DNA of 64,000 nt from UHGV virus genome UHGV-0209617; one strand, given 5' to 3'. A program made the position numbers and the translations under genes. The notes below the pieces were generated by a model. That model did no database searches and was not told where the DNA came from. It was given only the letters and a program-made list of their open reading frames with translations. This document shows positions 40,171-64,000 of this stretch, piece by piece (position 1 is the stretch's first letter; every line of letters starts with the position of its first letter). The stretch is from a virus.

Positions 40171-40178
40171 ATTATAGG

Positions 40179-40207
40179 TTGAATATATCCTAGAGATGGT
40201 ATATAAT
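40179..40207 (+). promoter_or_regulatory. Promoter candidate for Phd-Doc (TTGAAT, 17 bp, TATAAT)
   Basis: Hexamers and spacing read directly. Confidence 0.5.
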
Positions 40208-40230
40208 AGCCATGAAAGGAGATGATACCT

Positions 40231-40844: not shown

Positions 40845-40889
40845 CAAGGGTGTTGCCGTAATGGTAACGCCTATTTTTATGGAGGAAAA

Positions 40890-42846: not shown

Positions 42847-42859
42847 GGAGGAATTTACA

Positions 42860-44056: not shown

Positions 44057-44069
44057 TGGGGTGATGTAA

Positions 44070-49800: not shown

Positions 49801-50579
49801 GTGATATAGATGCCCTGCAGGATTTTCTAGGTTCTAATGATGCGCAGGATATGATGTATCTTGAAGGACAGCAGAATCTTGCCAGAGCCTATGTGGATAT
49901 TTGGAAGGAAGCCCATAAAACCACCGAGGATATGGTGGCTGACCTTGCTGTAAGCGTCAACAGCTCAATGGCTGACAGCCTTAAAAGCTTCATTACTGGC
50001 TCAAAGACTGCAATGGATGTGGTGCATGACCTTGGCAGAACCATCATGAACACAATAGCTGAAATCGTAGCCAAGAAAGCTGCCACCCAGATTGTTACCT
50101 CCATGTTTGGAGGATTCTTCAAGGATGGCGGTGAGCTGCCAGGATTTGCTTCGGGAGGCTCTATTGCCGGCGGATATATCAGCGGTGCGGGGACGGGTAA
50201 AAGCGACAGCATAGTTGCGTATCTTGAGAGAAGCGGTCAGTTCGTAAGGCTCTCTGATGGAGAGTTCGTCATGACTGCCGAGGCTACAAGGAAGAACCGC
50301 CCAATGCTTGAAGCCATGAACGCAGGTGCCTATGCTAATGGTGGCTTCATAACAGCTCCGGGAGTAAGACCAGCCTATGCCGGTTCATATTCTGTTGGAA
50401 GCAATCAGCCGGCTGGTGGTGTCATAGTAAACATTACAAATAACTCCGACAGCAGGGTTGAAGCAAGACAGGCAGGATTTGACTCGCAGGCCCAGCGTTA
50501 TATTTTGGATATTGTGATAGACGGAGCACAGAGAAATGTAAACGGTTTTGGAAATAATCTTAAAGCAGTGATGGGGTGA
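46872..50579 (+). CDS. Tape measure protein with embedded CHAP/NlpC-P60-like peptidoglycan hydrolase domain (GTG start)
   Basis: 1236 aa, Ala/Gln-rich coiled-coil-like segments; ENTCSIFASKML...GDVIEWGGHVGIYDG Cys/His hydrolase-like block. Confidence 0.8.
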   Translation: MSVISNLMVKIGADSSGLKKGLAEAGNQIKTSFNTAPVEAFSTQVDASRKTVEGLIGKMKGFAVLAAGGFGMTAMIKGIAEAGDNSYRLAQRMHITAAEAGALSRIMSITGGDVNSLSGAMMRLDKSFSSASTDGEQTRAILDAVGVSLTNQKGQLLPINEQLKNLAAGYKKATDAGYGQEFIMNTLGVKGMALVSTLEQYNEAAEAAGKVKTVGLDPKAMHELNMQLKIMQMESGQIQNALVMGFAPVVQEFLPGIMTGLQTTALFLRENKTEIAALTKAAVEFYLTMKAISLVTTAGANVLNFWKSISMAAKESAVVQEAVSAELTAKQISQINKVVAKSNQGYAKMQVDAIKAAQKQGMASEEARAKLEKDLLAIQLEAEKTAAFITRSFTAHFMEVNAAANAMAAGTAESMTAMGAAGVKATTAQTMATAELTAAHAAEGAAALRAGESNVAASAMATKATVSQTVATGELTVATVASGNAAAVAGAKTVSFTAGALKGIKALQAGVLALTGGWLGLAAAIAYAGYCLYEYQSEKIAEEKAHTYTVDGQQYEEKNGYFYTKDRVNPDWEPSPYDEFDDTAIIKGGELVTDNDLNEKLQAAWWERHKDDPDYKAHLEQEAAETKMREADSKLAELMQNLNVGTESGSKAPVKEPVTYEVAVPVGEDVVAAAMYHVGESWGENTCSIFASKMLEEAGITGLSDPNGDNMAAKAGAAYHDVNDGYQPKAGDVIEWGGHVGIYDGNGGYIASNTKTGVHHGSMDEAESWFGPVQGYISTAEYTGNKTVLKNMDSEAKAVEDATAKLNKAKEDAKKLFSSMESEIQRETGTEYSYGMNQIEANIRKKQVEINQLKESGVDTGMLEKELQDYETVLKSKIIDNWEKANEEIKGSTAVTLAEVKKNYIQAADEEYKVTLQKLAREREEKEKELLRDKEDAESRLAIDEWYAAESLKAMETRNKNIRASYSKLISDLEETGDIDALQDFLGSNDAQDMMYLEGQQNLARAYVDIWKEAHKTTEDMVADLAVSVNSSMADSLKSFITGSKTAMDVVHDLGRTIMNTIAEIVAKKAATQIVTSMFGGFFKDGGELPGFASGGSIAGGYISGAGTGKSDSIVAYLERSGQFVRLSDGEFVMTAEATRKNRPMLEAMNAGAYANGGFITAPGVRPAYAGSYSVGSNQPAGGVIVNITNNSDSRVEARQAGFDSQAQRYILDIVIDGAQRNVNGFGNNLKAVMG

Positions 50580-50583
50580 TTGT

Positions 50584-50943
50584 ATGCTTGTTTTTCCGGA
50601 TATTGAACCTAATATATCCTCTGCCAATGGCTGCGGAGACAGCTATAAGATGTCTATAAAAGACAGTACCGTTTCAACGGTGACAGATGGAAACTATAAA
50701 ATGACCAGACCACGCACGACCAGGATGCTGGCTGCGTGGTCTTTTTCCTGGGTGGCCTTATCTGAGGATGAGTTCAGGAAAATAGAGGACTTCTTCCGAA
50801 AGGTGGGTACCTTCCAGAAGTTCCTCTTTAATAATCCCATGGATGGCAAGGAATACACTGTGAGATTTTCCGAGCCACTTACAGATTGGCAGTATGTTCA
50901 TCCCTATGGCTGGCAGGGAAAGCTCAGTTTTGAGGAGGTGTAA
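50584..50943 (+). CDS. Minor tail protein (lambda gpM-like position)
   Basis: Position and size after the tape measure gene. Confidence 0.5.
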   Translation: MLVFPDIEPNISSANGCGDSYKMSIKDSTVSTVTDGNYKMTRPRTTRMLAAWSFSWVALSEDEFRKIEDFFRKVGTFQKFLFNNPMDGKEYTVRFSEPLTDWQYVHPYGWQGKLSFEEV

Positions 50944-50946
50944 GCC

Positions 50947-51531
50947 ATGCAGGTATGGTCACAGGCGGCAACCCTTGAAAAGAACAGCCTATCTTCGGAT
51001 ACACCGTTTCTTCTTCTGGTTGAGGTCATATCCAAGGAGATGTCAGAGCCGATATATCTGGTCAGAAATACAGAGAATATCGTATGGCGTGGAAAGGAAT
51101 GGACGGCCTTTCCCATAGAGGTGGAATCATCCTCCGAGGATGGAAAGACAATACCGTACATAAACATCAAGGTCAGCAACTGCGGAGGCATGATAGGTGC
51201 CTACCTTCAAAGGTATAACGGCCTTGTGGATTCCGAGATAAGGATTTATGTGGTACTTGCTAGCAATCTGCGATCTGAGTCAGCTGAGTTTGAGCTGGAC
51301 TTTCTTATAACCGAGGCAAAGTACACCGAGGACTGGATAACCTTTGTCCTGGGGGCAAGTGCAGAGCTGGTATCAAGATTTCCCACATTCCGCTATAACA
51401 AGAATTTCTGTCCTTTTATCTGCGGAGATGTGCGGTGCGGCTATGTGGGAAATGAAAGCTGTGTTAATACCCTGGATTCATGTAAGATTCCAGGAAGATT
51501 TGGCGGGGAGCCAGGGATGGTGAGTGCATGA
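50947..51531 (+). CDS. Minor tail protein L-like, with C-terminal cysteine cluster
   Basis: C-terminal FCPFICGDVRCGYVGNESC...C cluster, as in gpL-type tail tip proteins. Confidence 0.6.
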   Translation: MQVWSQAATLEKNSLSSDTPFLLLVEVISKEMSEPIYLVRNTENIVWRGKEWTAFPIEVESSSEDGKTIPYINIKVSNCGGMIGAYLQRYNGLVDSEIRIYVVLASNLRSESAEFELDFLITEAKYTEDWITFVLGASAELVSRFPTFRYNKNFCPFICGDVRCGYVGNESCVNTLDSCKIPGRFGGEPGMVSA

Positions 51532-51911
51532 TGTACAGTGATTTGATTGGTGTGCCATTTGAAGATGGCGGCAGGAACAAAAATGGTATGGACTGCTGGG
51601 GTCTTGTGATGGAGTGCTTTTTCCGTAAGGGAATAGTTCTGCCGGAATATGGTATATCTGCAGAGGAGCTTCTAAGAATTTCAGACAAAATGGCATCTGA
51701 AGAATCCAAATGGGAAAAGCTCACTGAACCGACAGACGGATGCCTTGTGCTTATCCGCACTGCTGAAGGTGCATGGGCAAACCATGTGGGAATCTATATC
51801 GGGGATGGCAGGTTCATCCATGCATATCCCGCAGCAGGGGTATGCATTTCTAAAATCTCTCGCTGGAAGAGTCACATTGTAGGTTTTTATTATCCGAAGG
51901 AGGGCGGCTGA
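51528..51911 (+). CDS. NlpC/P60-family tail-associated peptidase (gpK-like)
   Basis: DCWGLVMECF...H...GDGRFIHA Cys/His pattern. Confidence 0.7.
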   Translation: MMYSDLIGVPFEDGGRNKNGMDCWGLVMECFFRKGIVLPEYGISAEELLRISDKMASEESKWEKLTEPTDGCLVLIRTAEGAWANHVGIYIGDGRFIHAYPAAGVCISKISRWKSHIVGFYYPKEGG

Positions 51912-54900
51912 TGGTAAAGGTCATAATAATTGAAAATCCATTCGAGCCGCATATCCATGATGCATATGAGGTTCTATATACCGGTAAATCCTTGGAAAGC
52001 TACACATCCCTTGAAAGCAGGGATGTGTTCATCAACGGTCATAAGGCTGAAGATATAGCTATTCCAGCAGACGAGGACTGTATCATTTCCATTCCACACA
52101 TAGCAGGAGGCGGTGTAGGAAAGATTCTAGGCTTTGTGGCTATGGTAGCACTTACTGTGGTTACAGGTGGTATTGCTGCTAATGGTCTTACTGGCTTTCT
52201 TGGGCTTACCGTAAAGGGAGCGACCCTTGCCAGCTGTCTTATCTCAGGCGCTGTGATGTATCTGGGCGGCAGGCTCATAAATGCAGTGTTTCCGCAGGGG
52301 GCAGCTACCCAAAGTATTGGAGGATACAGCGAAGGACAGAAGACTCAGACCTATGGCTGGGATCTTCCGACAGTAGCAACAAGAGAAGGCGGCATCATAG
52401 GAGAAACCTATGGCACCTGCATTCCACAGCCCCAGCTCTTGGAGGAGCACGTTGAAACAATCGGTGGAAAGCAGTACCTTAATCTTCTATATTGCGGCGG
52501 TTATGGTGAAGTGGACAACATAACGGATATGCGGATTGATTCTACTCCCATTGACTGCTTTTCAAATGTACAGATAGAAAAGAGGTTTGGCACCAATGAC
52601 CAGAAGCCAATCTCCTTCTTTGACGATACTCCGACCGACCAGGGCGTGAGCCTTCTATTAGACCTCAATAAGCCAATCATCCGTACCACGGATTCCATCA
52701 AGGCATCAGCTCTTGAGGTAACTTTGGAGTGGCCTAATGGACTATACCATCTGAACAATGATGGCAACTATGAAAGTGCCAGCATCGTATGCAGGATAGA
52801 TTACAGGCTTCGCGGGGATGAAGCATGGATTTACCATAATTCCTATACGGTCAGCAACTCATCAGCGGATGCCTTCAGGCGTTCCTTCAAGTGGAAGGTA
52901 TCAAAGGCAGGGCAGTATGATGTAAAGCTGGTGCTTACAACAAAGCCATCTGGCTCAAGGTATATGACCTACACCAGCTGGTCTATCCTGACCTCATATA
53001 ATTCTGGCATTTACAGCAGGCCCAATAAGGTGCTTATTGGCCTTCGCATCCTGGCAACGAATCAGCTGTCGGGCGGAGTTCCTAACCTTACCTGGAAACA
53101 GACACGAAGCAGGGTGTATGTCTATAATCCGCATCTTAAATGCTATGAGATTAAGCCTGCCGACAATCCAATCTGGGCGGCATATGATATCCTTCATGGC
53201 TGCAGGTATCTGAAGAATATCAACACAGGAAGCTTTGAGTATGTGGTGGACGGATGTGCTCATGAGAGACTTGATGCCTATTACGATGAGTGGCTAAGTG
53301 CAGCAGCTTATGCTGATGAAGAAATAGTAAACCATGATGGCGAAAAGGAAAGACGCTTCAAGTTTGATGCGTTCTATGATACCGCCCAGAAACGCTATGA
53401 TGCAGCAGTCAAGGCTGCGGCAGTAGGACACAGTAACATAATAATCCATGGCTGTAACTACGGCATCACAGTGGATAGGCCGGGTATCATAACCCAGGTG
53501 TTCAGCGAAGGGAGAACCACAAAATCCTCTGTGATAGGCTCATTCTTAAGCAGGAGCGAAAGAGCCAGGTCTGTAGAGATTACCTATAATGATGAAAACA
53601 ATGACTACAAGAATACTCAGTTCACCCTGAGAAGTGCCTTGTATGACAGGGATATGGAGCAGGATAATACCGCTCAGCTTACTCTCTTTGGTGTGAGCCG
53701 AAGAAGCCAGGCATACCGTGAGGGTATCATGGCCCTGGCTGCATCAGAAAGACAGCTACAGACAATCGAGCTATCTACGGACATAAATGGCATTACGGCA
53801 GAATACGGGGATATCGTTGGTTACTCACACAGTATCAGCAGAATTGGCATCGCATCCGGCAGGATCGTAAGTGCCACTAAAAACACAGTGAAGCTGGATA
53901 AGAGCGTAACCATGGATGAGGGCAGAACCTATGAAATCTATCTTCAGACACGGAAGGATGAGCTTATACATAGGCTGGTCAAGACCGAGGAGGGCACAAC
54001 TGACCTTCTTACTGTGATGCTGCCGTTTGACACTGCTGTATCTGAATACGACTGCTATTCCTTTGGTGAGGCTGAAAGGGCAGTAAAGCCTTTCCGCATT
54101 GTGGGAGCAGAGCGTGACGGAGATTTTCTGGTGAAGCTGAAGCTCATAGAATATGACGAGGCAGTCTATGCTACCGAAATGGACTATAGTAAATATCCAA
54201 GGATTGACTACACATCATCCGATAGCTTTACCACAGATAACATAACCCTTACGGAAGATACCTATGTGCAAAAAGACGGTACTGTGGTATCTGCTATAGA
54301 TATCGAGTGGGAAAGCCAGTCGGTGTATCAGTCCTCCTTGGATGGCTACAGCGTTGAGATAACGGATATGGAGACTGATACCACAGAGGAGTTCATCGTA
54401 AGCGGTCTGTCTTACAGATACTCTGGGGTAAAGGCAGGAAATACCTATAAGGTAAGGGTGCGGCCTGTGGTTCATGGCAACCGCATCAACGGAAGGTCAG
54501 CATCCATAACCATCACGGGAAAGGTTACGCCACCAGGGGATGTGGCTTATATGTCACTTGTAGAGGTGGATGGCAAAATCCTCGTAACAATCCAGCAGGT
54601 GGCAGAGCCGGATATTGACCACTATGAGCTTAGGCTTGGCAGCAGCTGGGATAATTCCTTTAAGGTATGTGATTTTTCAGGAAGTCCTGTAACTGTCCAG
54701 CCAAGTATGAACGGCACCTGCACATACTTTGTAAAGGCAGTGGATACCTCTGGTAATAAGTCGGAAAATGCCTGCAGGCAGATCATAAACATCAGCAGCA
54801 TCACGGCAAACAATGTAATCCTTGAAAGAAACTTTGATATTCATGACTTTGCTGACTGGGACAATTTTTATGAGCATAGGGGAGCTTTGCTGATGGCAAG

Positions 54901-55603
54901 CAGAGAAAGAATCACTGACTTTGAGTATTTCTGGGAAATCTTCGACCAGCTTACCTATCTTGATGGTTCGGTGTATCTTCCGCTTATTGATTTAGGGGAA
55001 AACATCATAGATACTGACTGCTACTACATAGACAGCAAGGGAATCATCCATCAGCAGAATCTACGGCGCATAAGGGATTTTAAGTATTTTTCCGAGCTAT
55101 TCGAGAAGGATGACCGCCTTGCGGCTCCCGTATCCCTGGACAGTACATTCTTAAGGATTGCCATTGATGGTGATAACAGCAGTGATGTACTGAAGGCAGT
55201 GGAGTATCGGACAAGCATTGATGGATATACCTTCAGCAATTGGATAGCCGCATCCCAGACAGCCTTCAAGGGAAGGTTCGTGCAGATAAGGATTAATCTC
55301 AGCAGCATATCCGGTCATACCCAAGGATACATTAAATCAGTATGTGTCAGCATAGATGTGCCAGATACGGAGGTAATCCTTGAAAATGTACTCCTTAATG
55401 CGGGAGATAACTACATTCGGTATAATCACCGCTTCATGGAAAAGCCATCCTCGGTTGCCGTTTTTACGGCAGATGATAACGGCATGGCTGCAACATGGCA
55501 GATTACGGATTATGACAGGGATGGAGTACACCTTACCATATTCAATGCAAAAGGTGAAAGCTGTAGTGGTAAATTAATAAGAGCCATGGTTCGTGGCTAC
55601 TAA
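51911..55603 (+). CDS. Host-specificity (gpJ-like) tail tip protein
   Basis: 1230 aa immediately after the gpK-like gene. Confidence 0.7.
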   Translation: MVKVIIIENPFEPHIHDAYEVLYTGKSLESYTSLESRDVFINGHKAEDIAIPADEDCIISIPHIAGGGVGKILGFVAMVALTVVTGGIAANGLTGFLGLTVKGATLASCLISGAVMYLGGRLINAVFPQGAATQSIGGYSEGQKTQTYGWDLPTVATREGGIIGETYGTCIPQPQLLEEHVETIGGKQYLNLLYCGGYGEVDNITDMRIDSTPIDCFSNVQIEKRFGTNDQKPISFFDDTPTDQGVSLLLDLNKPIIRTTDSIKASALEVTLEWPNGLYHLNNDGNYESASIVCRIDYRLRGDEAWIYHNSYTVSNSSADAFRRSFKWKVSKAGQYDVKLVLTTKPSGSRYMTYTSWSILTSYNSGIYSRPNKVLIGLRILATNQLSGGVPNLTWKQTRSRVYVYNPHLKCYEIKPADNPIWAAYDILHGCRYLKNINTGSFEYVVDGCAHERLDAYYDEWLSAAAYADEEIVNHDGEKERRFKFDAFYDTAQKRYDAAVKAAAVGHSNIIIHGCNYGITVDRPGIITQVFSEGRTTKSSVIGSFLSRSERARSVEITYNDENNDYKNTQFTLRSALYDRDMEQDNTAQLTLFGVSRRSQAYREGIMALAASERQLQTIELSTDINGITAEYGDIVGYSHSISRIGIASGRIVSATKNTVKLDKSVTMDEGRTYEIYLQTRKDELIHRLVKTEEGTTDLLTVMLPFDTAVSEYDCYSFGEAERAVKPFRIVGAERDGDFLVKLKLIEYDEAVYATEMDYSKYPRIDYTSSDSFTTDNITLTEDTYVQKDGTVVSAIDIEWESQSVYQSSLDGYSVEITDMETDTTEEFIVSGLSYRYSGVKAGNTYKVRVRPVVHGNRINGRSASITITGKVTPPGDVAYMSLVEVDGKILVTIQQVAEPDIDHYELRLGSSWDNSFKVCDFSGSPVTVQPSMNGTCTYFVKAVDTSGNKSENACRQIINISSITANNVILERNFDIHDFADWDNFYEHRGALLMASRERITDFEYFWEIFDQLTYLDGSVYLPLIDLGENIIDTDCYYIDSKGIIHQQNLRRIRDFKYFSELFEKDDRLAAPVSLDSTFLRIAIDGDNSSDVLKAVEYRTSIDGYTFSNWIAASQTAFKGRFVQIRINLSSISGHTQGYIKSVCVSIDVPDTEVILENVLLNAGDNYIRYNHRFMEKPSSVAVFTADDNGMAATWQITDYDRDGVHLTIFNAKGESCSGKLIRAMVRGY

Positions 55604-55617
55604 GGAGGTAGAGATGA

Positions 55618-57972
55618 ATGATAAAGTTTTACGATAGCATGGGAGCCGCCCAGGGCATATCCGTCCTGTCGGACCTGGTGGATGCCTGTGACTTCTGGCA
55701 AAATGGCAAAGAGATTAAGTCGGGCAGTATTGCAAGAAGCTCAACGGACAGCCTTATTTATGCTGAGTGCATTGCAGGAGGCATAACAGGTGATGCAGAA
55801 CCCATCTGGGGGATAACAGATGGAACAGAGATAAACGATGGCAGCGTTAAATGGAAGGTGCATGATTTAAGAAAGGCACTTACTGCAGAAACGACTGACA
55901 GGTTCTCAGTTCCAAGGAAAATAAACGGCATAGAATTTGATGGCAGCAAGGATATAATCCTTCCGGCAGATTCCGTAGACGAGTCCACCTACATTGCAAA
56001 GGGACTGAAGGTTGGCGGTTTCTCTGGGAAGGATTTATTTATTTCCAGCGGTACGGCAAAGGTCAATGGCCGTACTGTAAACTTTGATGGTGGCAGCATT
56101 GAATTAGGGGAAAGGGAAACAGCCCTTGTTCATGTCACGGCAGAGGGGAAGCTGGGCAAGCGAAAGGCGGCATATCCAACGGAGTGGATTGATGACAATA
56201 CCATTGGCTTTTGGATTTTCAACAAGACAATAGCTGGTGATGCCGTGCCTAACATTGCTGTTGGAAAGTCAGCTGTAGCACAGAAAAATGACTTCATTCC
56301 ATACGGTGGCATTACATCGGTTGATGGTTGGGCGGATTATTCCCTGCAGACTGATGTGGCAACAGGTTATTTTGAGCTTCAGAATAACCTTGGCTTTATG
56401 ACGGGTGTTGTGCCATTTGAGTACAACATCCTTATAACACCAGATAAGATTGATGGCTCTACAGACTTCATTTTCAATTATGCAGGAAATGTTACGACCA
56501 TATACATCAACAGCAACGGCCTTCTTTACTGCGGTGGTCAGAACACTGGCTATATCTGCGAGACAGGGAGAACCTTCTTCCTGACCTATCAGTATGATGG
56601 CAGGATTGCCTATGTGTATATTGACGGAAGGCTTGTATTCCAGGTTACAGTAAATATCTCTCTTTCTCTGAATACCAGCCAGAACACAAGAATTGGCTGT
56701 GCCTATGATAAGTCGGATATGTTTCCGGCCACATTCCATTTCGTGGAGATCAGAAAAGCAATCCGTAAGCCGGAGGAGATTGCACATATATCAAATGAAC
56801 TGCTTTTGCCATGCTTCTATGAAAAGGGCAGTTCTACTTATCCTGTCATTCCATCTGAGTATACCAATTATGCCGAGTGGAAATTCGATGATGAGACACC
56901 GGATACTTTGAAGGAAACCAACGGTATCAATAGCGGTGTGGTCGGCAGTACTGTTACTCCCACACAGGAAGAAAGCCAGCTTGGACTTGGCAAGGCTATG
57001 CGTTTTACGGGAGCCAATACCTGCTATATGAGTATCGGCACCATTACAATCCCAGAGGAGTTTACCATCATAGCTGTAGCTAATCCATTCCAGCTCACTG
57101 GACTGAACCGAATCTTTGGCAACAAGATTGGTGCAAGCCAAACCTTCATGTTCTGCTCCTCACAGGATGGAACGCTTGGAGTGTCATTTTACACGGGAAA
57201 TCAGAACAGCAACTCATGGATTAACTCTGGCCTTAAGCCGAATGTGGGAATGGAAAACTTCATTGCTCTTAGGACTACCGCCAAGAATCACTATTTTAGA
57301 GTGAACAGGGAAACGGCAGTAAGGCAAAATGCTTATTGGAGAAAGCCGGTATCTACAGAATTTGCCATAGGTGCCTGCTATGACAATAACTATCCATTCA
57401 AGGGTACATTAGCCTATCTGCTCTTTGTGCCTAGAGCCTTGACTGATGCAGAAATAGAGGAAATGTATGACTGCCTTATGGTAAAGGGCAGGAAGAACAT
57501 CATTGATGATATGGTTCCCGCAGATGCCGCAGTTGTTGCCATGGCAAGGGCTGATGGGGAGTCTGTCATTGAGTATAACGATGCTGACTACAAGTTCGGC
57601 AGGCGAGAAGGCGCGGTTGGCGGCAATAGGAAGGTGTTCCTTGGCTATAAGTATTTCTCTGGCACATCGGTATTATCATGGGATAACCCATTCGGGACAA
57701 GCAGAGTGAAACGATACTTCACATGGGCATCTGATGCCAAGGGTACCAATGAGATTGAAGCCATGAAGATGGTCTATGTGTATAACACTGGCTGGGGAGG
57801 TCTGTGGCCATTCTCGGATTCTGACACAGGAAACGATGATATGAAGATTACCTGTTATGTTAGCACCGTCTATGGAGGTGTTGCTCTATACAACGGAGCA
57901 TGGAAATCCTCTGGCTATATTGGCTGCTATGTGGAGGTAATGGAAGATTATACGGGGGTTGATGGCAGATGA
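55618..57972 (+). CDS. Tail fiber / receptor-binding protein candidate
   Basis: 784 aa at the end of the tail module. Confidence 0.55.
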   Translation: MIKFYDSMGAAQGISVLSDLVDACDFWQNGKEIKSGSIARSSTDSLIYAECIAGGITGDAEPIWGITDGTEINDGSVKWKVHDLRKALTAETTDRFSVPRKINGIEFDGSKDIILPADSVDESTYIAKGLKVGGFSGKDLFISSGTAKVNGRTVNFDGGSIELGERETALVHVTAEGKLGKRKAAYPTEWIDDNTIGFWIFNKTIAGDAVPNIAVGKSAVAQKNDFIPYGGITSVDGWADYSLQTDVATGYFELQNNLGFMTGVVPFEYNILITPDKIDGSTDFIFNYAGNVTTIYINSNGLLYCGGQNTGYICETGRTFFLTYQYDGRIAYVYIDGRLVFQVTVNISLSLNTSQNTRIGCAYDKSDMFPATFHFVEIRKAIRKPEEIAHISNELLLPCFYEKGSSTYPVIPSEYTNYAEWKFDDETPDTLKETNGINSGVVGSTVTPTQEESQLGLGKAMRFTGANTCYMSIGTITIPEEFTIIAVANPFQLTGLNRIFGNKIGASQTFMFCSSQDGTLGVSFYTGNQNSNSWINSGLKPNVGMENFIALRTTAKNHYFRVNRETAVRQNAYWRKPVSTEFAIGACYDNNYPFKGTLAYLLFVPRALTDAEIEEMYDCLMVKGRKNIIDDMVPADAAVVAMARADGESVIEYNDADYKFGRREGAVGGNRKVFLGYKYFSGTSVLSWDNPFGTSRVKRYFTWASDAKGTNEIEAMKMVYVYNTGWGGLWPFSDSDTGNDDMKITCYVSTVYGGVALYNGAWKSSGYIGCYVEVMEDYTGVDGR

Positions 57973-58202
57973 TGTATTACAACAGAAAAACAGGAGACTT
58001 GAGCAGTGTTCCACCATGGGGCGCTGCTTTTTTACTGCCCAAAATCAGGAAGGCAAGATTTCCAGATTGGGAAGAAGTGGATGATGGCTTTGTTCCAAAG
58101 AATAAGAAGGTTGAGCTATCTGAGCCTGAAACCAGCAAGGCTGACATCGAGCTTGCTGAGGCTTTAATAGAAATCTACAGCATATTGGAGGAGAGAAAAT
58201 GA
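57969..58202 (+). CDS. Hypothetical small phage protein
   Basis: ORF translationally coupled to the fiber gene. Confidence 0.5.
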   Translation: MMYYNRKTGDLSSVPPWGAAFLLPKIRKARFPDWEEVDDGFVPKNKKVELSEPETSKADIELAEALIEIYSILEERK

Positions 58203-58357
58203 AGATTTACAAGTACAAGGCAAAGGCCTACGCAGTGCTGGTAAAGGCAGGAAGGTACATACTGTCTGAAGATCAGAGGGAGAACAAGAAGCAGGAGCTT
58301 GTACCAGAGGAGTATGCAGATCTTGTGGCAGAGATTCTTCTTGGAGGCGATAGCTGA
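58199..58357 (+). CDS. Small protein (52 aa), not in the ORF track
   Basis: ATG overlaps the upstream stop (ATGA), GGAGGAGAGAAA SD, and its stop overlaps the next ATG (ATGA). Confidence 0.5.
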   Translation: MKIYKYKAKAYAVLVKAGRYILSEDQRENKKQELVPEEYADLVAEILLGGDS

Positions 58358-58725
58358 TGGATGAGAGGGATGTAGTCATGCTTTACATCCAGGTTGGTGG
58401 TGCGTTACTTGTCAGTGCCATCACAGGCGTAATGGGTGCTCTGGTACGTGAGGTATGGGCGCTTAGAAAGGAACGACAGGAAAAAGCCATAGAGGAAGAA
58501 GCTGAACGGGGAAAACGCAGAAAGGCATTAAAGGCACTCTTGAAGTTTCAGCTTCATCGCTCCTGGCAGTATCACACCAGCAATGGCTTCATGCCAGCCA
58601 ACGAGATGAGCCTTCAGACAGAGCTGTATGAGGCTTATCACGATATGGGAGGTAACGGCACCGGGACAAAGCTCTATAACGAGATGATGGAGCTGCCACA
58701 TATCAAGCACACGGAGGTAAAGTAA
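58357..58725 (+). CDS. Membrane protein, holin-like (one N-terminal TM segment plus charged coiled region)
   Basis: VMLYIQVGGALLVSAITGVMGALV hydrophobic segment; GGAGG SD; in the lysis cassette. Confidence 0.5.
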   Translation: MDERDVVMLYIQVGGALLVSAITGVMGALVREVWALRKERQEKAIEEEAERGKRRKALKALLKFQLHRSWQYHTSNGFMPANEMSLQTELYEAYHDMGGNGTGTKLYNEMMELPHIKHTEVK

Positions 58726-59030
58726 TGAAGAACTTAATAGTACAGTTTTCTGCATGGGCGCAGGCCAACTGGCTTGCGCTTGTTATTTTTATGATTTTTT
58801 CCATGATGGCATTCCTGTGCATGGTCATGGGAAGCTGGCTTTATGGCTACTGGTCAAATGCTCTCTGCGGCACGAAGTTTGAACTTGGTAGCTGCTGGCA
58901 GGGAATCACTGTTGTTATCACGGGCCTTGGCGGTGTTGCAGCACTGGCCAAGGCTGCATGGACCAAGTATTCAACGGACAGCCAGTATAACAGCATGATG
59001 GGGAGTCATCCATACGAAAGGGGTAAGTGA
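58725..59030 (+). CDS. Holin (two predicted TM segments)
   Basis: Two hydrophobic stretches; immediately upstream of the endolysin. Confidence 0.6.
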   Translation: MKNLIVQFSAWAQANWLALVIFMIFSMMAFLCMVMGSWLYGYWSNALCGTKFELGSCWQGITVVITGLGGVAALAKAAWTKYSTDSQYNSMMGSHPYERGK

Positions 59031-59602
59031 TTATGATTAAGGGTATTGATGTATCGGAGAACAACGGCACTGTAGATTGGCAGGCAGTAAAGAATGCCGG
59101 GATTGAGTTTGCTATTGTAAGAAGCTCCTATGGTAAGACGGGAGTGGATGAGAAGTTCCTGGAAAATGTAAATGGTGCTCATGCAGTGGGGCTGAAGGTT
59201 GGTGCTTACCATTATGGCTATGGCCTGACTCCGGCTGATGCAGTGCTTGAAGCAAGGAACTGCCGTGAGGTAATTGATGAGGCAGGAGTGCTTCTGGAGC
59301 TTCCTGTTTTCTATGACATGGAAGATGCTGATGGCTATAAAGAAAGACACGGATTTTGGTTTGACCCAGAGAATGCCACAGGTATCTGCAGGGCATTCCT
59401 GGATAACATTGGCCTGAACTGTGGTGTATACGCATCATACAGCTGGCTTTGTGATTTGATTGACTGGCGCAGTCTCGGCTGCTCAGTCTGGAACGCAGAA
59501 TGGGGAGGTAGCGATGATATTGAAGGATATATGTGGCAGTTTACGGAAAAGCTTTATATCTCTGGTAAGCAGTTTGATGGAAACTATCTCTACAACTGGT
59601 AA
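59027..59602 (+). CDS. GH25-family lysozyme endolysin (muramidase)
   Basis: IKGIDVSENNGTVDWQAVKNAGIEFAIVR ... GAYHY pattern typical of GH25. Confidence 0.8.
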   Translation: MIMIKGIDVSENNGTVDWQAVKNAGIEFAIVRSSYGKTGVDEKFLENVNGAHAVGLKVGAYHYGYGLTPADAVLEARNCREVIDEAGVLLELPVFYDMEDADGYKERHGFWFDPENATGICRAFLDNIGLNCGVYASYSWLCDLIDWRSLGCSVWNAEWGGSDDIEGYMWQFTEKLYISGKQFDGNYLYNW

Positions 59603-59616
59603 GGCGGTGATGGGGC

Positions 59617-60036
59617 ATGAGAAAATCATTCTGGTTTGTGCTGCTGTTATTGCTCTTGTGTGTGCCGCAGCTTTCCTTTGCTGCAGAGAGGACATACCAA
59701 GTGACGGAGACAGAGCTGACGAGGTTAGAACAGAACTTGACGGAGCTATCCGAAATGAACAGCAAGCAATCAATGAACTTAGAACAGCAGAAGATACAGC
59801 TTCAGAACTCGGATTTGCAGTTGAAGCAGGCCGAAGAGAAGTACAGTCTGCTATCCAGTCAAATGAAGAACTTGGAGAAGGAAATGCTAGAGCAGCAGGA
59901 CTCATTAGAGAATGCCAGGAAATCCTTCGAACAGTTCGCCAAAGAGGAACAATTGAAGAGAGATAAGCTGAAGCGTGAAAAGAATATAGGATACTGGCTT
60001 GCAGGGATACTAGCTGTAGTATGTATTGCCAGATAA
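59617..60036 (+). CDS. Signal peptide + coiled-coil + C-terminal membrane anchor protein (unknown function)
   Basis: MRKSFWFVLLLLLLCVPQLSFAAE signal-like N-terminus; heptad-like Q/E/K/L-rich middle; hydrophobic C-terminus IGYWLAGILAVVCIAR. Confidence 0.6.
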   Translation: MRKSFWFVLLLLLLCVPQLSFAAERTYQVTETELTRLEQNLTELSEMNSKQSMNLEQQKIQLQNSDLQLKQAEEKYSLLSSQMKNLEKEMLEQQDSLENARKSFEQFAKEEQLKRDKLKREKNIGYWLAGILAVVCIAR

Positions 60037-60040
60037 GTGA

Positions 60041-60084
60041 AAAGCCCGATGTGGAGAAAAAATTTCTCTGCATCGGGCTTTTTC
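60041..60084 (+). terminator. Rho-independent terminator after the lysis cassette
   Basis: AGCCCGATG ... CATCGGGCT stem followed by TTTTT. Confidence 0.7.
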
Positions 60085-60174
60085 AGTTATTGGTCATATA
60101 CATAACGAGTAGCAAACGGCGCTAATAAACGTGCGTATATAAATTATAAAATAAGCACGAATGTTAAAATTATC

Positions 60175-60203
60175 TTTACAACTGTGCTTATTTAATTTAT
60201 AAT
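60175..60203 (+). promoter_or_regulatory. Consensus-like promoter for abiE (TTTACA, 17 bp, TATAAT) flanked by ATAAGCAC repeats
   Basis: Hexamers read directly; ATAAGCACG at 60151 and 60204 and its inverse GTGCTTAT at 60184 overlap the promoter. Confidence 0.6.
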
Positions 60204-60228
60204 ATAAGCACGGTTGGAGGTGATTGCC

Positions 60229-60810
60229 ATGAATGACATTGAAAAGCTTGTTGATGAGTCAGGAATGATTACAACTAGAGATATAGTGAAAAATAATCAG
60301 TCAAAAGTAGAATTTTACAATTACCTGAGAAAAAATGATTTTGAACAAGTATCGCGTGGTATATATGCTTCTAAGGATGCGTGGGTAGACCCATTATTGA
60401 TTGCGCATATGAGATGTCCTAAAGCGGTGATCTCTCATGATGTGGCACTTCATTATTATGGCTTGGTTGATAGAGAGCCTTCAGCTCCAACGCTTACTAT
60501 TTATTCTGGATACAACACAAGCAGGTTAAAAGAAGCAGGGTACAAGGTGTTTTTCGTGAAGAAGGAATACCTTGATGCTGGCAAAGAAGAGGTTGTAAAT
60601 TTTGATGGCAACATCATTCCTATGTATAACCTTGAAAGAACGATGTGTGACCTTGTCAGAAACAGAAGCAGCTTTGAGATTCAAGATTTCAATGCAGCTA
60701 TAAAAGCGTATGCCAGAAAAAAGGAAAAGAATCTTACAAGGCTATTTGAATATGCGAAAATGCTTAGGGTGGAAAAATTGATGCGGTCATATATGGAGGT
60801 GCTTTTGTAA
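60229..60810 (+). CDS. abiEi: AbiEi-family antitoxin / transcriptional regulator
   Basis: N-terminal DNA-binding-like region ending ...VSRGIYA; paired with a DUF1814-type nucleotidyltransferase; GGAGGTGA SD. Confidence 0.75.
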   Translation: MNDIEKLVDESGMITTRDIVKNNQSKVEFYNYLRKNDFEQVSRGIYASKDAWVDPLLIAHMRCPKAVISHDVALHYYGLVDREPSAPTLTIYSGYNTSRLKEAGYKVFFVKKEYLDAGKEEVVNFDGNIIPMYNLERTMCDLVRNRSSFEIQDFNAAIKAYARKKEKNLTRLFEYAKMLRVEKLMRSYMEVLL

Positions 60811-61664
60811 TGATCTTATCAGCTGCACAGGCAAGAGGCAGGATTAAGAATATTGTGGCAAAAAATGGTGCGGACCCAAGACTGCTTATGAGAATTTATA
60901 TGATGGAGAGATTTTTGGAACGAGTATCCCTTTCTGCATACAAGGATAATTTCATCATTAAGGGCGGAATGCTTATAACATCATTGGTTGGTATTTCCAT
61001 GCGGTCAACTATGGATATTGACACAACTGTAAAAGGCCAGGATGTAAGCATGGAAAATGCACAGCGTATTGTTAAAGAAATTGCTGACATTCAGATTGAT
61101 GATGGGGTTTCTTTTGTGATTAAAGATGTAGAAAACATAATGGATGAGATGGAATATCCAGGAATCAAATTTCACTTGGAAGTGTTATTAGACAAAATGG
61201 TTACGCCAATAAAGATTGATGTTTCTACGGGCGATGCAATTACACCCAGAGCGATTGAATATAATTACAAGCTTATGCTTGAAGATAGAGAAATCGGGCT
61301 GTGGAGCTATAATCTGGAAACAATCCTTGGGGAAAAATTACAGACGATACTTGTACGTGAACGTGCAAACACCAGAATGAGAGATTTCTATGATATATGT
61401 GTATTGGTAGAAATGTATGACAGTAAGATAAATACTGTCAATTTCAAAGCAGCATATGAGGCGACCTGTAGAAAAAGAGGGTCATTACACTTATTTGGTA
61501 ATGAAGGAAAAATACTGGATATAATAGCTGGTGAAAGTAAAATGATTGATAGATGGACAAATTATCAGAAGAAGTTTTCTTATGCATCTGATATCAGTTT
61601 TGAGAAAGCTATTCAGTGTGCAAAGGGGTTAATTTCATTCTTGAAAAATAGTACCGGAAAATAA
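60810..61664 (+). CDS. abiEii: AbiEii-family nucleotidyltransferase toxin (DUF1814-type)
   Basis: 284 aa directly coupled to the AbiEi gene; typical gene pair. Confidence 0.75.
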   Translation: MILSAAQARGRIKNIVAKNGADPRLLMRIYMMERFLERVSLSAYKDNFIIKGGMLITSLVGISMRSTMDIDTTVKGQDVSMENAQRIVKEIADIQIDDGVSFVIKDVENIMDEMEYPGIKFHLEVLLDKMVTPIKIDVSTGDAITPRAIEYNYKLMLEDREIGLWSYNLETILGEKLQTILVRERANTRMRDFYDICVLVEMYDSKINTVNFKAAYEATCRKRGSLHLFGNEGKILDIIAGESKMIDRWTNYQKKFSYASDISFEKAIQCAKGLISFLKNSTGK

Positions 61665-61697
61665 TATGTCAGCTTAATAGTATATGGAAATGTACGT

Positions 61698-61736
61698 CCC
61701 TATGTGGAACTTGAGGTTCTGCATAGGGTATTTTTT
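61698..61736 (+). terminator. Rho-independent terminator after abiEii
   Basis: CCCTATG ... CATAGGG stem followed by TTTTTT. Confidence 0.65.
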
Positions 61737-61892
61737 GTTATCGCTGGTTCTAAAAATGGTTCTTGTTGTCCTTGTACTGTTGAGGTGAAGAATCATGACG
61801 GATTTCCGTTCAAAGAGTGCATTTCTGTCATGGGACTGTTAAAGGGGTTCGATTTGCCCTGATTTGCCGCATATAAGTAGGAGGGATGCATC

Positions 61893-62270
61893 ATGACAGA
61901 AGTAGAGAAGAAAAGAATAAAGGAGCTTCATTATCAGGGGCTGGGATATCGGAAGATTGCTGCCGAACTTGGCATGTCCCCTAATACTGTGAAATATGTA
62001 ACCAAGAATCTGGTAGCTACGGATAATCATACCTGCAGGAACTGCGGCATCAAAGTTTTACAGACAGCAGGACGCAAGGAGAAGAAGTTCTGTTCAGATA
62101 AATGCCGTATGGATTGGTGGAACAGCCATCTCGATACTGTTAATCGCAAGGGATATAAGACCTTTACCTGTAAATGCTGCAGTAAGGAATTCATGGCTTA
62201 TGCCAGGACAGGCAGGAAATACTGCAGCCGGGAATGTTATTTCAAGGCTAGATATGGAGGTGCAAGATGA
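61893..62270 (+). CDS. HTH protein with C-terminal zinc-ribbon motifs (Tn916 orf7-like position)
   Basis: LHYQGLGYRKIAAELGMSPNTVKY HTH followed by several CxxC pairs. Confidence 0.6.
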   Translation: MTEVEKKRIKELHYQGLGYRKIAAELGMSPNTVKYVTKNLVATDNHTCRNCGIKVLQTAGRKEKKFCSDKCRMDWWNSHLDTVNRKGYKTFTCKCCSKEFMAYARTGRKYCSRECYFKARYGGAR

Positions 62271-62458
62271 GTACGCCGTTGAATGAAAAGTACACACTTA
62301 GTATAAAGGAATCCGCCAAGTATTTCGGTATTGGCATGAAAAGGCTGCGGCGGCTTGCAGAAGAACATATGGACACCTTTGCTATCCGCTGTGGCAACAA
62401 GTATCTCATCATCCGCACTGAGTTTGAAGCCTTTCTGAAGGATTCAGAAGAAATATAG
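62267..62458 (+). CDS. xis: Excisionase-family DNA-binding protein (Tn916 Xis-like)
   Basis: EKYTLSIKESAKYFGIGMKRLRRLAEEH resembles the Tn916 Xis N-terminus. Confidence 0.7.
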   Translation: MSTPLNEKYTLSIKESAKYFGIGMKRLRRLAEEHMDTFAIRCGNKYLIIRTEFEAFLKDSEEI

Positions 62459-62526
62459 CTTATATGCCAAATAGTAGTTGAATAATATCGCAAACAGAGT
62501 GATATATAGTGTCGGAGGTGATGAGC

Positions 62527-62751
62527 ATGCAGAAATCAGATCTTGGGGAACGGGAATACCTTAGCAAGAAGTATACTGCCGTCTTCTTCGGACTCAGTCC
62601 CAGGCGGCTTGAGCGATTCCTCAAAGCAGATGACTATGATTTTGTTGTGTATTATAAGAAAAGAACACTGATATTAAGGGAGGCCTTCAACAGATATCTC
62701 TGGAGGAATCCTGATGTAAGGGAGATGTTGAAACGTGGCAAGACGAGGTGA
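62527..62751 (+). CDS. Second excisionase-like HTH protein
   Basis: YLSKKYTAVFFGLSPRRLERFLK; start chosen at the ATG 8 nt after GGAGG. Confidence 0.55.
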   Translation: MQKSDLGEREYLSKKYTAVFFGLSPRRLERFLKADDYDFVVYYKKRTLILREAFNRYLWRNPDVREMLKRGKTR

Positions 62752-64000
62752 AGTAAGAAGGGATTCAAGGAACAGGCTGTTAAGGATAGGTGAATCCCAG
62801 CGTAAAGATGGCAAGTACATGTTCAAATACCATGTGGATGGCAGACCGTATTTCGTCACCAGCTGGAGACTGCTGCCTTCAGATAGGCAGCCAAAAGGTA
62901 CAAAGCCTACCCTTTCACTGAGGGAATTGGAAAAGAAGGTAGGAAGGGAAATCGACCTGCAGATGAGCCTTGAACTCAGGAACTGCACGGTTAAGGATTT
63001 GGTTGAGCGGTATTTGGCTACCAGGATTAATGCAAAGCCGAATACCAAGATGGGGTATAATACTGTAAAGAATGTACTGGAAAGTGAGCCCTTTTATCAT
63101 AGGAAGATAAAAACAATCAAGGTATCTGATGCAAAGATATTCCTCATCAAGTTGCAGGAAAATGGCAGGAAGGCCAGCACGGTGAAATGCATCAGAGGGG
63201 TTCTCCGCCCGGCTTTTCAGATGGCTGTAGATGATGATATGCTGGTCAAGAATCCTTTTGCTTTCGAGCTGGCAGGTGTCCTGGTAAATGACTCAGTCAC
63301 AAGGGAGGCTGTCAGCAGGAGGGAAATGAAAAAGTTCTTGCAGTTTGTCAGGAACGATGATTGCTACTGCAAATACTATGAGGCAGTACATATACTGTTC
63401 CATACGGGAATGCGAATATCTGAATTCTGCGGTCTGACGATAAATGACCTTGATATGGAGAACAGAATCATAGATATAAACCATCAGCTGGTGCGTGTGG
63501 GAATGAAGCTGATAATACAGACCACAAAGACCAACGCAGGCACCAGAAGGATTCCGATGTCTGAGGATGTATATGAAATGTTCAAGAGCATATTGGCTAA
63601 CAGGCCAACAGGCATAGATGAGAAAGCCGTTGATGGGTATAAGGGGTTCCTCTACCTTGATAATGCCGGACTGCCACTTGTGGCAATGCACTGGTCAAAC
63701 AGGTTCAGGCATATGGTCGGGCGCTACAATGACATTTACAAAGAACAGATGCCTAAAATCACTCCTCACGTCTGCCGCCATACCTACTGCAGCAACATGG
63801 CAAAATCGGGAATGCATCCAAAGATCCTGCAGTACCTTATGGGGCATTCGGACATTGGTGTGACGCTCAATACATATACCCACTTAGGGCTTGAGGACGC
63901 CCAGGGCGAGATGGACAGACTGAAGGATGCCCAACAGGAGATTGACAAGGGCAAGGTAAGGGAACTGCCACCAACCAAGGCTCAATTCAAAGTAGTATAA
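62735..64000 (+). CDS. int: Tyrosine site-specific integrase (Tn916 Int-like), GTG start, stop codon at the window end
   Basis: N-terminal RRDSRNRLLRIGESQRKDGKYMFKY resembles the Tn916 Int arm-binding domain; C-terminal ...HVCRHTYCSNMAKSG...LMGHSDIGVTLNTYTH carries the recombinase R...H-x-x-R...Y region. Confidence 0.85.
   Translation: MARRGEVRRDSRNRLLRIGESQRKDGKYMFKYHVDGRPYFVTSWRLLPSDRQPKGTKPTLSLRELEKKVGREIDLQMSLELRNCTVKDLVERYLATRINAKPNTKMGYNTVKNVLESEPFYHRKIKTIKVSDAKIFLIKLQENGRKASTVKCIRGVLRPAFQMAVDDDMLVKNPFAFELAGVLVNDSVTREAVSRREMKKFLQFVRNDDCYCKYYEAVHILFHTGMRISEFCGLTINDLDMENRIIDINHQLVRVGMKLIIQTTKTNAGTRRIPMSEDVYEMFKSILANRPTGIDEKAVDGYKGFLYLDNAGLPLVAMHWSNRFRHMVGRYNDIYKEQMPKITPHVCRHTYCSNMAKSGMHPKILQYLMGHSDIGVTLNTYTHLGLEDAQGEMDRLKDAQQEIDKGKVRELPPTKAQFKVV

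Follow-up and report, generated by a model that had tools for sequence, protein, structure and literature searches.

In this work we have analysed the right end of a 64-kb stretch of viral DNA, referred to below as the window, which carries what is, to judge from its sequence, an ordinary but intact AbiE toxin–antitoxin or abortive-infection gene pair. Our overall explanation, which we hold with good confidence, is that an autonomous AbiE cassette was horizontally gained by a temperate Lachnospiraceae phage and constitutes a putative AbiEi-repressed toxin operon with a role in abortive infection. The identities of the genes, their intact motifs, the promoter, the terminators, the palindromes and their conservation, the sharp boundary of the cassette and its position in a prophage are directly established. 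The cassette comprises two palindromes, O1 and O2, the second of them lying over the promoter, followed by abiEi and abiEii, and it measures 1.54 kb. Both genes are on the same strand, with a single promoter upstream and a single terminator downstream, and so form a bicistronic operon in which the antitoxin comes first; they overlap by one base (TAATG).

The gene abiEi (60229-60810, + strand) codes for a predicted antitoxin and autorepressor of 193 aa, with an N-terminal winged helix-turn-helix and a C-terminal antitoxicity domain, and abiEii (60810-61664, + strand) codes for a DUF1814 nucleotidyltransferase of 284 aa, the predicted toxin. The preliminary description had named the two genes AbiEi and AbiEii, and the PADLOC, Pfam and PDB matches agree with that assignment. 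AbiEi matched the PADLOC AbiEi model at 6.6e-63 (residues 3-192) and the structure 6Y8Q at 1.3e-18 (residues 11-192 of 193, 29% identity); the Pfam AbiEi_4 model, which represents the winged helix-turn-helix, aligned with residues 4-47 at 18.7 bits, below its 25-bit cut-off. The alignments point to the two-domain architecture of AbiEi proteins. AbiEii matched Pfam PF08843 at 2.8e-37 (129.4 bits against a cut-off of 22.5, profile positions 1-237 of 238), the PADLOC model at 2.5e-93 and, over nearly its full length, the structure 9HLO_B at 6e-42 (32% identity). The NCBIfam models gave no match for either protein, a blastn search of 60041-61736 against 50,697 phage records returned none, and a scan of IMG/VR viral contigs for AbiEi found no relative. 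An RNA antitoxin or riboswitch was rejected because the matches to Rfam in 59500-62400 did not rise above chance level and were all far below the gathering scores.

The residues of AbiEii were judged against the mutational data of PMC3985639 and bioRxiv 10.64898/2026.01.19.700257. In the alignment with the Streptococcus agalactiae toxin, G52 and G53, D69 and D71, and D195 correspond to G50 and G51, D67 and D69, and D192, and nucleotidyltransferase motifs I (GG/GS), II (DxD) and IV (the D192 equivalent) are thus all present. Likewise, T67 corresponds to the phospho-acceptor T65, and R183 and R223 to R180 and R220, so that every catalytic and phospho-acceptor residue tested is kept. The antitoxin is less faithful in one loop: D81 of AbiEi aligns with the residue numbered D85 in the preprint (chain index 84), whereas R82 and E83 replace E86 and I87 of the same numbering, and two of the three important loop residues of the S. 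agalactiae protein are therefore not conserved.

How might such a pair act in a lysogen? For the steps proposed here we reason from homology with S. agalactiae AbiE and with MenAT systems. In S. agalactiae, AbiEi neutralises AbiEii through auto-phosphorylation of T65 (Arrowsmith et al. 2026, bioRxiv 10.64898/2026.01.19.700257). In the lysogen, AbiEi would contact AbiEii and lead it to auto-phosphorylate on T67, which would keep the nucleotidyltransferase off. An invading phage may then disturb the balance between AbiEi and AbiEii, and unphosphorylated AbiEii would add pyrimidine nucleotides to the 3' ends of tRNAs and bring translation to a halt, the outcome being an aborted infection or growth arrest. 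Protection of the lysogen against other phages is plausible. In the founding system, that of Lactococcus lactis, which by description is alike in being a two-gene AbiEi/AbiEii pair of a Firmicute on a mobile element, defence was shown against 936-type phages (as cited in PMC3985639 and bioRxiv 10.64898/2026.01.19.700257).

Could the cassette serve the prophage itself instead? On this account it would mainly be an addiction or stabilisation module: loss of the element would end the supply of AbiEi, AbiEii would arrest the cell, and defence would be secondary or absent. We regard this as a real though minor possibility. The S. agalactiae abiE genes with their native promoter stabilised pUC19 (PMC3985639), and when 32 coliphages were tried on E. 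coli, the same AbiE gave no protection (bioRxiv 10.64898/2026.01.19.700257). The position of the cassette fits as well, since it lies 2.3 kb from the end of the prophage and adjoins xis and int, and in another locus, L007, it again adjoins an integrase, a different one. However, abortive infection is proven for the AbiE of L. lactis (as cited in PMC3985639), locus L006 has the cassette in an apparently chromosomal context, and in a sister prophage, L011, the slot holds two PADLOC candidate defence genes beside the cassette, which is the signature of a defence hotspot. Addiction and defence are, moreover, not mutually exclusive.

A sigma-70-type promoter (60175-60203, + strand) precedes abiEi, with a -35 element TTTACA at 60175-60180, a 17-nt spacer and a -10 element TATAAT at 60198-60203; it matches 11 of 12 consensus positions and is the best promoter that our scan found in 59500-62300. 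Among related loci, the comparison covered ten from unrelated genomic contexts, and the group-A sequences number 11; in all 11 the -35 is invariant and the -10 is TATAAT or TACAAT. Between O1 and the -35 lies an A-rich segment, AATGTTAAAATTATC (60160-60174, + strand), in the position of an UP element; its part ATGTTAAAA is kept in most group-A loci, including L006, which has no O1, and we take the segment to be a candidate UP element. The ribosome-binding site GGAGG (60216-60220, + strand), read from the sequence, stands 8 nt before the ATG of abiEi, and GGAGGTGAT at this site is invariant in the alignment of related loci. A longer abiEi reading frame from TTG-60214 was considered, but this start is unlikely, since the ATG/GTG position is the one used in homologues and in gene calls from metagenomes.

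Intrinsic terminators bracket the unit. The upstream one (60040-60087, + strand), which ends the lysis-side transcript, consists of a hairpin at 60040-60082 followed by TTTTT, with inverted-repeat arms of 20 nt that are 90% complementary and a 3-nt loop, and it folds at -35.9 kcal/mol (z = -10.2). A simple terminator scan missed this hairpin, which was recovered by folding and repeat finding. It lies outside the conserved AbiE unit and is conserved in none of the related loci. The terminator of the operon (61698-61738, + strand) has a stem at 61698-61728 followed by TATTTTTTGT; its 14-pair stem contains 6 GC pairs and closes a 3-nt loop (-20.4 kcal/mol, z = -3.7), and it is common only to the sister prophage L011, in which homology extends as far as 61735. 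A promoter TTTACA-17-TATAAT with a terminator on either side of the pair had been proposed in the preliminary description, and all three hold, on the consensus score and the folding z values respectively. In the lysogen, the operon would be transcribed from its own promoter, and the strong upstream terminator would shield it from the late transcript of the phage.

It had also been proposed that one motif is repeated three times around the promoter in an operator-like manner. Three exact copies of ATAAGCAC are indeed found, at 60151 (+), 60184-60191 (-) and 60204 (+); the repeat unit, however, is not a triplet. Because a fourth half-site with one mismatch is present at 60130-60138 (-), the unit is a pair of palindromes: the four half-sites make up two 30-bp palindromes that lie 53 bp apart. 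O1 (60130-60159; CGTGCGTAT-N12-ATAAGCACG) falls at about -80 to -51 from the predicted start site. O2 (60183-60212; TGTGCTTAT-N12-ATAAGCACG), the candidate core operator, covers the spacer together with the -10 and the start site, which is predicted near 60210, and its arms extend to 18 nt (60179-60196 and 60199-60216). Although the 8-mer ATAAGCAC alone is not rare, with 9 matches in the window against 2.6 expected, the composite pattern GTGCKTAT-N12-ATAAGYAC with up to two mismatches occurs in the 64 kb only as O1 and O2; these give 4 strand-matches against 0.04 expected, a count reached in 0 of 100 shuffles. O1 was also considered as a second promoter, but the promoter scan makes no call there and the sequence at the -35 position (consensus GAAACA) is a poor match, for which reasons it is treated as an operator only.

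Comparison with the related loci shows that the sites belong to the cassette. In seven genome loci the homology starts at 60128, which is 2 bp before O1 (at 60131 in L005 and at 60161 in L006), and where the homologue is complete it ends at 61621-61664, the stop of abiEii; the flanks are unrelated. In every one of the 11 group-A sequences O2 keeps the position -45 relative to the start codon. O1 lies at -98/-99, 53-54 bp from O2, in eight of the 11; it is absent in L006 and L013 and has collapsed in L012. By this comparison O2 is universal among the group-A sequences and O1 is accessory. The promoter region (-55..-1) is 88% identical, against 60% at four-fold sites, and is the higher of the two in 54 of 55 pairs; the promoter hexamers and the ribosome-binding site, and not the half-sites, account for part of this noncoding conservation. 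In a clade whose AbiEi is 54% identical, a palindrome occupies the same promoter position with changed half-sites, GCTAAT...ATTAGC, in which GCTTAT has become GCTAAT. No DNA-binding protein other than AbiEi accompanies the palindromes from locus to locus. The operator-like reading thus gains support from sites that travel with the cassette, keep fixed distances and are conserved beyond synonymous positions, and a role of O1 and O2 as AbiEi operators is strongly supported by these sequence comparisons. O2, together with O1, is most likely where the antitoxin would switch the operon off. The winged helix-turn-helix of AbiEi would bind the half-sites of O2, covering the spacer, the -10 and the +1, and we propose that RNA polymerase is thereby occluded and the operon negatively autoregulated. 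O1 would offer two more half-sites, five helical turns upstream on the same face of the DNA, and probably strengthens or tunes repression through cooperative binding.

Do the palindromes perhaps serve another regulator, such as a phage repressor or a host factor, or are they simply the architecture of an AT-rich promoter? The region is AT-rich, the 8-mer occurs six times elsewhere in the window and O1 is dispensable in 3 of 11 loci, but the composite pattern is unique in the window and the sites move into unrelated genomes where AbiEi is the sole shared protein with a DNA-binding domain. In addition, in the 54% clade, where AbiEi has diverged, the half-sites have diverged with it but have stayed in place, and the architecture parallels the proven operators of S. 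agalactiae and Rv2827c (PMC3985639, PMC7319586). We therefore consider such a role very improbable.

The closest parallel to the proposed AbiEi operators is in AbiE of S. agalactiae V/R 2603 (PDB 6Y8Q, 9HLO). This system is likewise bicistronic with the antitoxin first, both proteins are homologous to ours over their full length, and the genes are driven by a sigma-70 promoter whose spacer is 17 nt and which is followed by a short leader. There, too, an inverted repeat in the same orientation lies over the promoter, with the related core TTGCTTTT where our sites have GTGCTTAT (PMC3985639), and the proven operator overlaps the region from the -35 to beyond +1 (Dy et al. 2014, PMC3985639). The two systems nevertheless differ in several respects. 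Identity is only 29% for AbiEi and 32% for AbiEii, the AbiEi loop reads D-R-E here and D-E-I there, and our copy is prophage-borne, unlike that of S. agalactiae. The cores are spaced by 12 bp here against about 29 bp in S. agalactiae (11-mers separated by N27), the left core, which contains the -35 there, falls in the spacer immediately after the -35 here, and a second palindrome, O1, stands 53 bp upstream where S. agalactiae has the single IR1-IR2 pair. As the half-site geometry differs, the stoichiometry and DNA bending described for S. agalactiae are not simply transferable.

The second parallel is Rv2827c-Rv2826c of Mycobacterium tuberculosis, an AbiEi-like antitoxin that autoregulates and a DUF1814 toxin (Beck et al. 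2020, PMC7319586). It also has four inverted-repeat elements in two pairs, the gene-proximal pair lying over the promoter (PMC7319586). Its repeats are 23 bp long, with gaps of 13 bp within and 4 bp between the pairs and a total of about 122 bp, and binding to the operator is negatively cooperative (PMC7319586); our layout has 9-bp cores, 12-bp gaps and a total of 83 bp. The mycobacterial genes are chromosomal and not phage-borne, and their proteins are too distant for detection by sequence here. Could O1 and O2 represent a third kind of AbiEi operator, which resembles neither the 49-bp pair found singly in S. agalactiae nor the M. tuberculosis set of four 23-bp repeats? It would consist of two phased palindromes that carry four half-sites, with a spacing of 53-54 bp (five helical turns) between the palindromes and of 12 bp between the cores, and on it AbiEi would build an ultrasensitive set-point that couples toxin release to other events. 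If this were so, four AbiEi protomers on one face of the DNA would wrap or loop the promoter to create the set-point, and since the cassette adjoins xis and int, the release of toxin would be coupled to the invader's shut-off of transcription and to loss of the prophage. We offer this as speculation and think it probably does not hold.

Loss of function of the cassette in this genome, with only a relic left, would agree with a Q77* allele of abiEii, which circulates in other copies of this prophage, and with the truncation of abiEii in locus L002. This has a very small probability in our estimate, as here both reading frames are full length with the tested catalytic residues intact, the promoter, ribosome-binding site and operators are consensus-like, and the regulatory region is under purifying selection. 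The circulation of Q77* means that the toxin is dispensable in at least some hosts. The Q77* alleles are also compatible with a cost of the toxin, which they do not prove.

That the cassette is cargo of the prophage, as the preliminary description had suggested, is supported by the surrounding genes. Structural and lysis genes lie upstream, ending with a GH25 endolysin (59027-59602, + strand; PF01183 at 9.2e-23) and a 139-aa protein with a signal peptide, a coiled coil and a transmembrane segment (59617-60036, + strand). Downstream follows the recombination module of the prophage, made up of an HTH-Zn protein (61893-62270, + strand), a Tn916-type Xis (62267-62458, + strand), an 80-aa protein, p80 (62509-62751, + strand), and a tyrosine integrase, Int, with a Tn916 DNA-binding domain (62735-64000, + strand); family matches of the module are PF09035 at 8.9e-13, PF02920 at 1.2e-23 and PF00589 at 1.9e-31. 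Between them the cassette forms a GC trough of 34-39% against 44-49% in the flanks and is an autonomous transcription unit of deviating base composition. The Tn916-type Xis and the Tn916 domain of the integrase might suggest that the AbiE pair is part of a Tn916-like integrative element of its own, adjoining the prophage. We regard this as very improbable, for in the related complete phage genome NatCom_9291 the same four-gene module, HTH-Zn gene included, directly follows the endolysin without AbiE, and in that of CHVD 5762 a shorter version of the module, with homologous Xis, p80 and Int genes, directly follows the lysis genes, again without AbiE. The HTH-Zn protein, moreover, belongs by its match at 8e-37 to the phage family phrog_2308, genes for conjugation or mobilisation are absent in between, host genes start about 600 bp past Int in L057, a copy of the same prophage, and in L011 the recombinase that comes after the same lysis genes and cassette is a different one. 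When the post-Int sequence of L057 was compared with the window for a direct att repeat, nothing beyond chance 11-14-mers emerged.

The GC trough, the order of the module in NatCom_9291 and CHVD 5762 and the host genes past Int support the view that a gut Lachnospiraceae prophage carries the cassette as cargo close to its right end, in a variable slot between the lysis genes and Xis/Int. AbiE-type genes have been reported before in prophage surveys (e.g. PMC11863486), and we see no essential difference from prophage morons and lysis-integrase defence hotspots, which likewise have their own promoter and terminator, an odd composition and no counterpart in related phages, and in which the content of the slot varies. 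In L011, whose endolysin and 139-aa genes are 92% identical in DNA to ours, the same slot holds PDC-S14 and PDC-S26 along with AbiE, and such slots are a place to seek more defence genes in gut prophages. Existing knowledge of AbiE systems is left unchanged by the locus. It is a clean, well-delimited case of an AbiE cassette that moves as a unit, operator included, among chromosomes, other mobile elements and a widespread gut Lachnospiraceae prophage, and it yields a precise map of a putative operator with four half-sites, a core O2 and an accessory O1. The natural variants, namely loci without O1, the locus with a collapsed O1 and the Q77* alleles, are ready-made controls for the tuning of AbiEi operators.

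The antitoxin gene abiEi (193 aa) and the toxin gene abiEii (60810-61664, 284 aa) both lie on the plus strand, and the stop codon of the first shares one base with the ATG of the second (TAATG). We place the abiEi start at ATG 60229 because GGAGG lies 8 nt upstream, the ATG or GTG starts of its homologues coincide with it and metagenome gene calls likewise give 193 aa. The preliminary description had named the pair AbiEi/AbiEii and this holds: the first protein matched PADLOC AbiEi (6.6e-63) and aligned end to end with S. agalactiae AbiEi (6Y8Q; 1.3e-18, 29% identity), and the second matched PADLOC AbiEii (2.5e-93), the whole of Pfam AbiEii (PF08843, 2.8e-37) and the toxin of the S. agalactiae AbiEi:AbiEii complex (9HLO_B; 6e-42, 32% identity). 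Residues 4-47 of AbiEi also resemble the Pfam wHTH model AbiEi_4, at a score below the cut-off, and an NCBIfam search gave no match for either protein. In an alignment to the chain residues, AbiEii retains every residue for which mutational importance was found in S. agalactiae (PMC3985639; bioRxiv 10.64898/2026.01.19.700257): G50 and G51 of motif I are G52 and G53 here, the phospho-acceptor T65 is T67, D67 and D69 of motif II are D69 and D71, R180 is R183, D192 of motif IV is D195 and R220 is R223. The toxin-contacting loop of AbiEi keeps its aspartate (D81), and the two residues that follow are changed relative to S. agalactiae.

The pair had also been described as bracketed by terminators and driven by its own promoter, and we recovered all these signals on the plus strand. 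Upstream lies a hairpin with a T-run (60040-60082), which folds at -35.9 kcal/mol (z = -10.2) and is separated from abiEi by a 145-bp AT-rich spacer; downstream, a stem at 61698-61728 is followed by TATTTTTTGT. The sigma-70-like promoter, TTTACA (60175-60180) and TATAAT (60198-60203) with a 17-nt spacer, matches at 11/12 positions and is the top-scoring site in a scan of 59500-62300. The three copies of ATAAGCAC noticed earlier around this promoter are exact, but there is a fourth, with one mismatch, on the minus strand at 60130-60138, and the true unit is a pair of palindromes. By itself the 8-mer is not very rare (9 copies in the window against 2.6 expected). Its four half-sites pair into two 30-bp palindromes whose starts are 53 bp apart, O1 (60130-60159, CGTGCGTAT-N12-ATAAGCACG) and O2 (60183-60212, TGTGCTTAT-N12-ATAAGCACG), and GTGCKTAT-N12-ATAAGYAC with up to two mismatches finds only these two in the 64 kb (0.04 expected; 0/100 shuffles). 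O2 begins 2 nt past the -35 hexamer, includes the -10 hexamer and ends over the predicted start site near 60210, so that a protein bound there would block access of RNA polymerase; O1 occupies about -80 to -51.

Are these palindromes the operators of AbiEi? Scanning one genome per species yielded eight AbiEi loci, seven in Lachnospiraceae MAGs (81-87% AbiEi identity) and one in a Catenibacterium MAG (54%), and a metagenome scan added 46. Among the 11 closely related sequences (group A), O2 stands exactly at -45 from the start codon in all 11, and O1 occurs in 8, at -98 or -99 and 53-54 bp from O2. The accessory palindrome is missing from L006 and L013, where homology begins at 60161 and 60175, and has collapsed in L012. 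Mean identity over the 55 bp that precede the start codon is 88%, against 60% at the four-fold degenerate sites of abiEi, with the upstream stretch ahead in 54 of 55 pairs; this conservation is partly owed to the promoter hexamers and the RBS, with the half-site cores among the invariant columns. The diverged loci with 54% AbiEi identity (about 35) carry a single palindrome with 24-nt arms, likewise placed round the -10 hexamer, its core being GCTAAT...ATTAGC rather than the GCTTAT...ATAAGC found here. The half-sites vary along with the AbiEi protein and their position stays fixed.

The palindromes also move with the genes. In blastn comparisons with the seven close genome loci, homology starts at 60128, two bases ahead of O1, in five of the seven (at 60131 in L005 and 60161 in L006) and in complete homologues runs to the end of abiEii (61621-61664). 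No match to 55000-64000 was found in these loci outside the cassette, and their flanks are mutually unrelated: L006 looks chromosomal, with genes for HtpG, an MFS transporter and another DUF6088/AbiEii pair; in L007 the cassette is followed, 700 bp on, by a tyrosine integrase; L004 encodes a DUF6017 protein and L002 AAA ATPases. From the sharp edges and unrelated flanks we infer that the mobile unit comprises O1, O2 with the promoter, abiEi and abiEii. AbiEi is the sole DNA-binding protein that travels with the palindromes. Their conservation, fixed position and co-movement with the cassette support the earlier reading of the repeats as putative AbiEi operators. The second DUF6088 and AbiEii pair of L006 (3103-4703) is unrelated and lies 4.3 kb upstream of the O1-less cassette. 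In the rumen MAG locus L002 (1085-1453), abiEii homology ends at residue 115, which leaves a truncated toxin gene beside an intact abiEi and both palindromes.

S. agalactiae AbiEi binds TGTTGCTTTTA-N27-TAAAAGCAACA, with arms extendable to 23 bp and 3 bp between them, in an operator that overlaps the -35 hexamer and extends beyond +1; binding was lost when the repeats were deleted or replaced (PMC3985639). M. tuberculosis Rv2827c binds four 23-bp repeats in two pairs with negative cooperativity (PMC7319586). Our sites resemble the former in orientation, in overlapping the promoter and in their core, which is related (GTGCTTAT against TTGCTTTT), and the latter in having two pairs of repeats. The geometry differs: the core gap here is 12 bp, about 21 bp centre to centre compared with about 38 bp in S. 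agalactiae, the array as a whole covers 83 bp and its upstream pair is dispensable. We regard these differences as cis-regulatory detail varying within a known scheme.

By analogy with S. agalactiae and MenAT, AbiEi would repress its own promoter at O2 with O1 assisting, and its binding to AbiEii would lead to auto-phosphorylation of T67 and silence the enzyme. Released AbiEii would extend tRNA 3' ends with pyrimidine nucleotides and stop translation, which in an infected lysogen might abort the infection. The S. agalactiae abiE locus stabilises a plasmid (PMC3985639), and it gave E. coli no protection against 32 coliphages (bioRxiv 10.64898/2026.01.19.700257). The locus belongs to a well-known family whose prophage setting has already been reported (e.g. 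PMC11863486); what is added here is an exact operator map, a sharp cassette boundary and natural variants, namely O1-less loci and a toxin nonsense allele in the same prophage. This allele, C229T (Q77*), occurs in other metagenomic copies of the prophage (L059:6582-7436 and L062:5173-6027, corresponding to window 60810-61664) and deprives the 204-aa remnant, which is recorded on 8 contigs, of the phospho-acceptor and of motifs I and II; these copies show no change in abiEi or in the 192-bp regulatory region.

That the pair is prophage cargo, as first proposed, is borne out by its surroundings. By PHROG matches, 19979-37541 holds a replication module (exonuclease, DNA polymerase, primase-helicase, helicase, methyltransferase) and 38503-55603 the structural genes (large terminase, portal, major head protein, tape measure, gpJ-like tail protein); a GH25 endolysin comes next (59027-59602). 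Four genes follow AbiE, for an HTH-Zn protein (phrog_2308, 8e-37), a Xis of the Tn916 type, a protein of 80 aa and a tyrosine integrase that has the Tn916 DNA-binding domain. Could these four be a separate Tn916-like element beside the prophage? We reject this, since the complete phage genome NatCom_9291 has all four directly 3' of its endolysin, and CHVD 5762 has the last three directly 3' of its lysis genes, both without AbiE (identity with the window's proteins: HTH-Zn 42%, in NatCom_9291 only; Xis 51-61%, 80-aa protein 33-39%, integrase 61-62%). An identical AbiEi protein occurs on at least 24 metagenome contigs, with the same gene arrangement in 8/8 places listed. On contigs reaching past the integrase, host genes (LMWPc, DUF896, carboxylase) begin about 600 bp beyond it, and GC content drops to 34-39% across the cassette, from 44-49% in the flanks. 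The 600 bp between integrase stop and first host gene, seen in the prophage copy L057 (9772-10400, just past window position 64000), contain a repeat of roughly 100 bp twice (…TTCACCCCA…GTGGGGTGAAAAATTTA…GAATAAAGGA…); comparing this stretch with the window gave no att-like match.

In the sister prophage L011, the same lysis genes (92% DNA identity) are followed by the PADLOC candidate defence genes PDC-S14 (5e-109) and PDC-S26 (3e-21), just before an AbiE cassette that corresponds to window 60121-61735 (94% identity), 3' of which a SHOCT protein and a large serine recombinase replace the Tn916-type module. This makes the junction of lysis and recombinase genes a variable defence slot, with AbiE among its occupants; in L011 (1705-3684 and 5659-7425) it is combined with a swap of recombinase modules. 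Between endolysin and terminator lies the gene of a 139-aa protein (59617-60036) of no assigned family, which is conserved in L011 and may assist lysis or be a further moron; it has a signal peptide at the N terminus, a membrane segment at the C terminus and a long coiled coil. Directly left of the replication genes, a four-gene LlaJI-type restriction-modification cluster (12643-18321) contains two methyltransferases, an REase subunit (PDLC03547, 1e-117) and a LlaJI endonuclease (PF09563, 2e-28), and two neighbouring amidoligase-family genes (phrog_2443) lie at 35537-37541, with the phage methyltransferase on one side and the terminase on the other.
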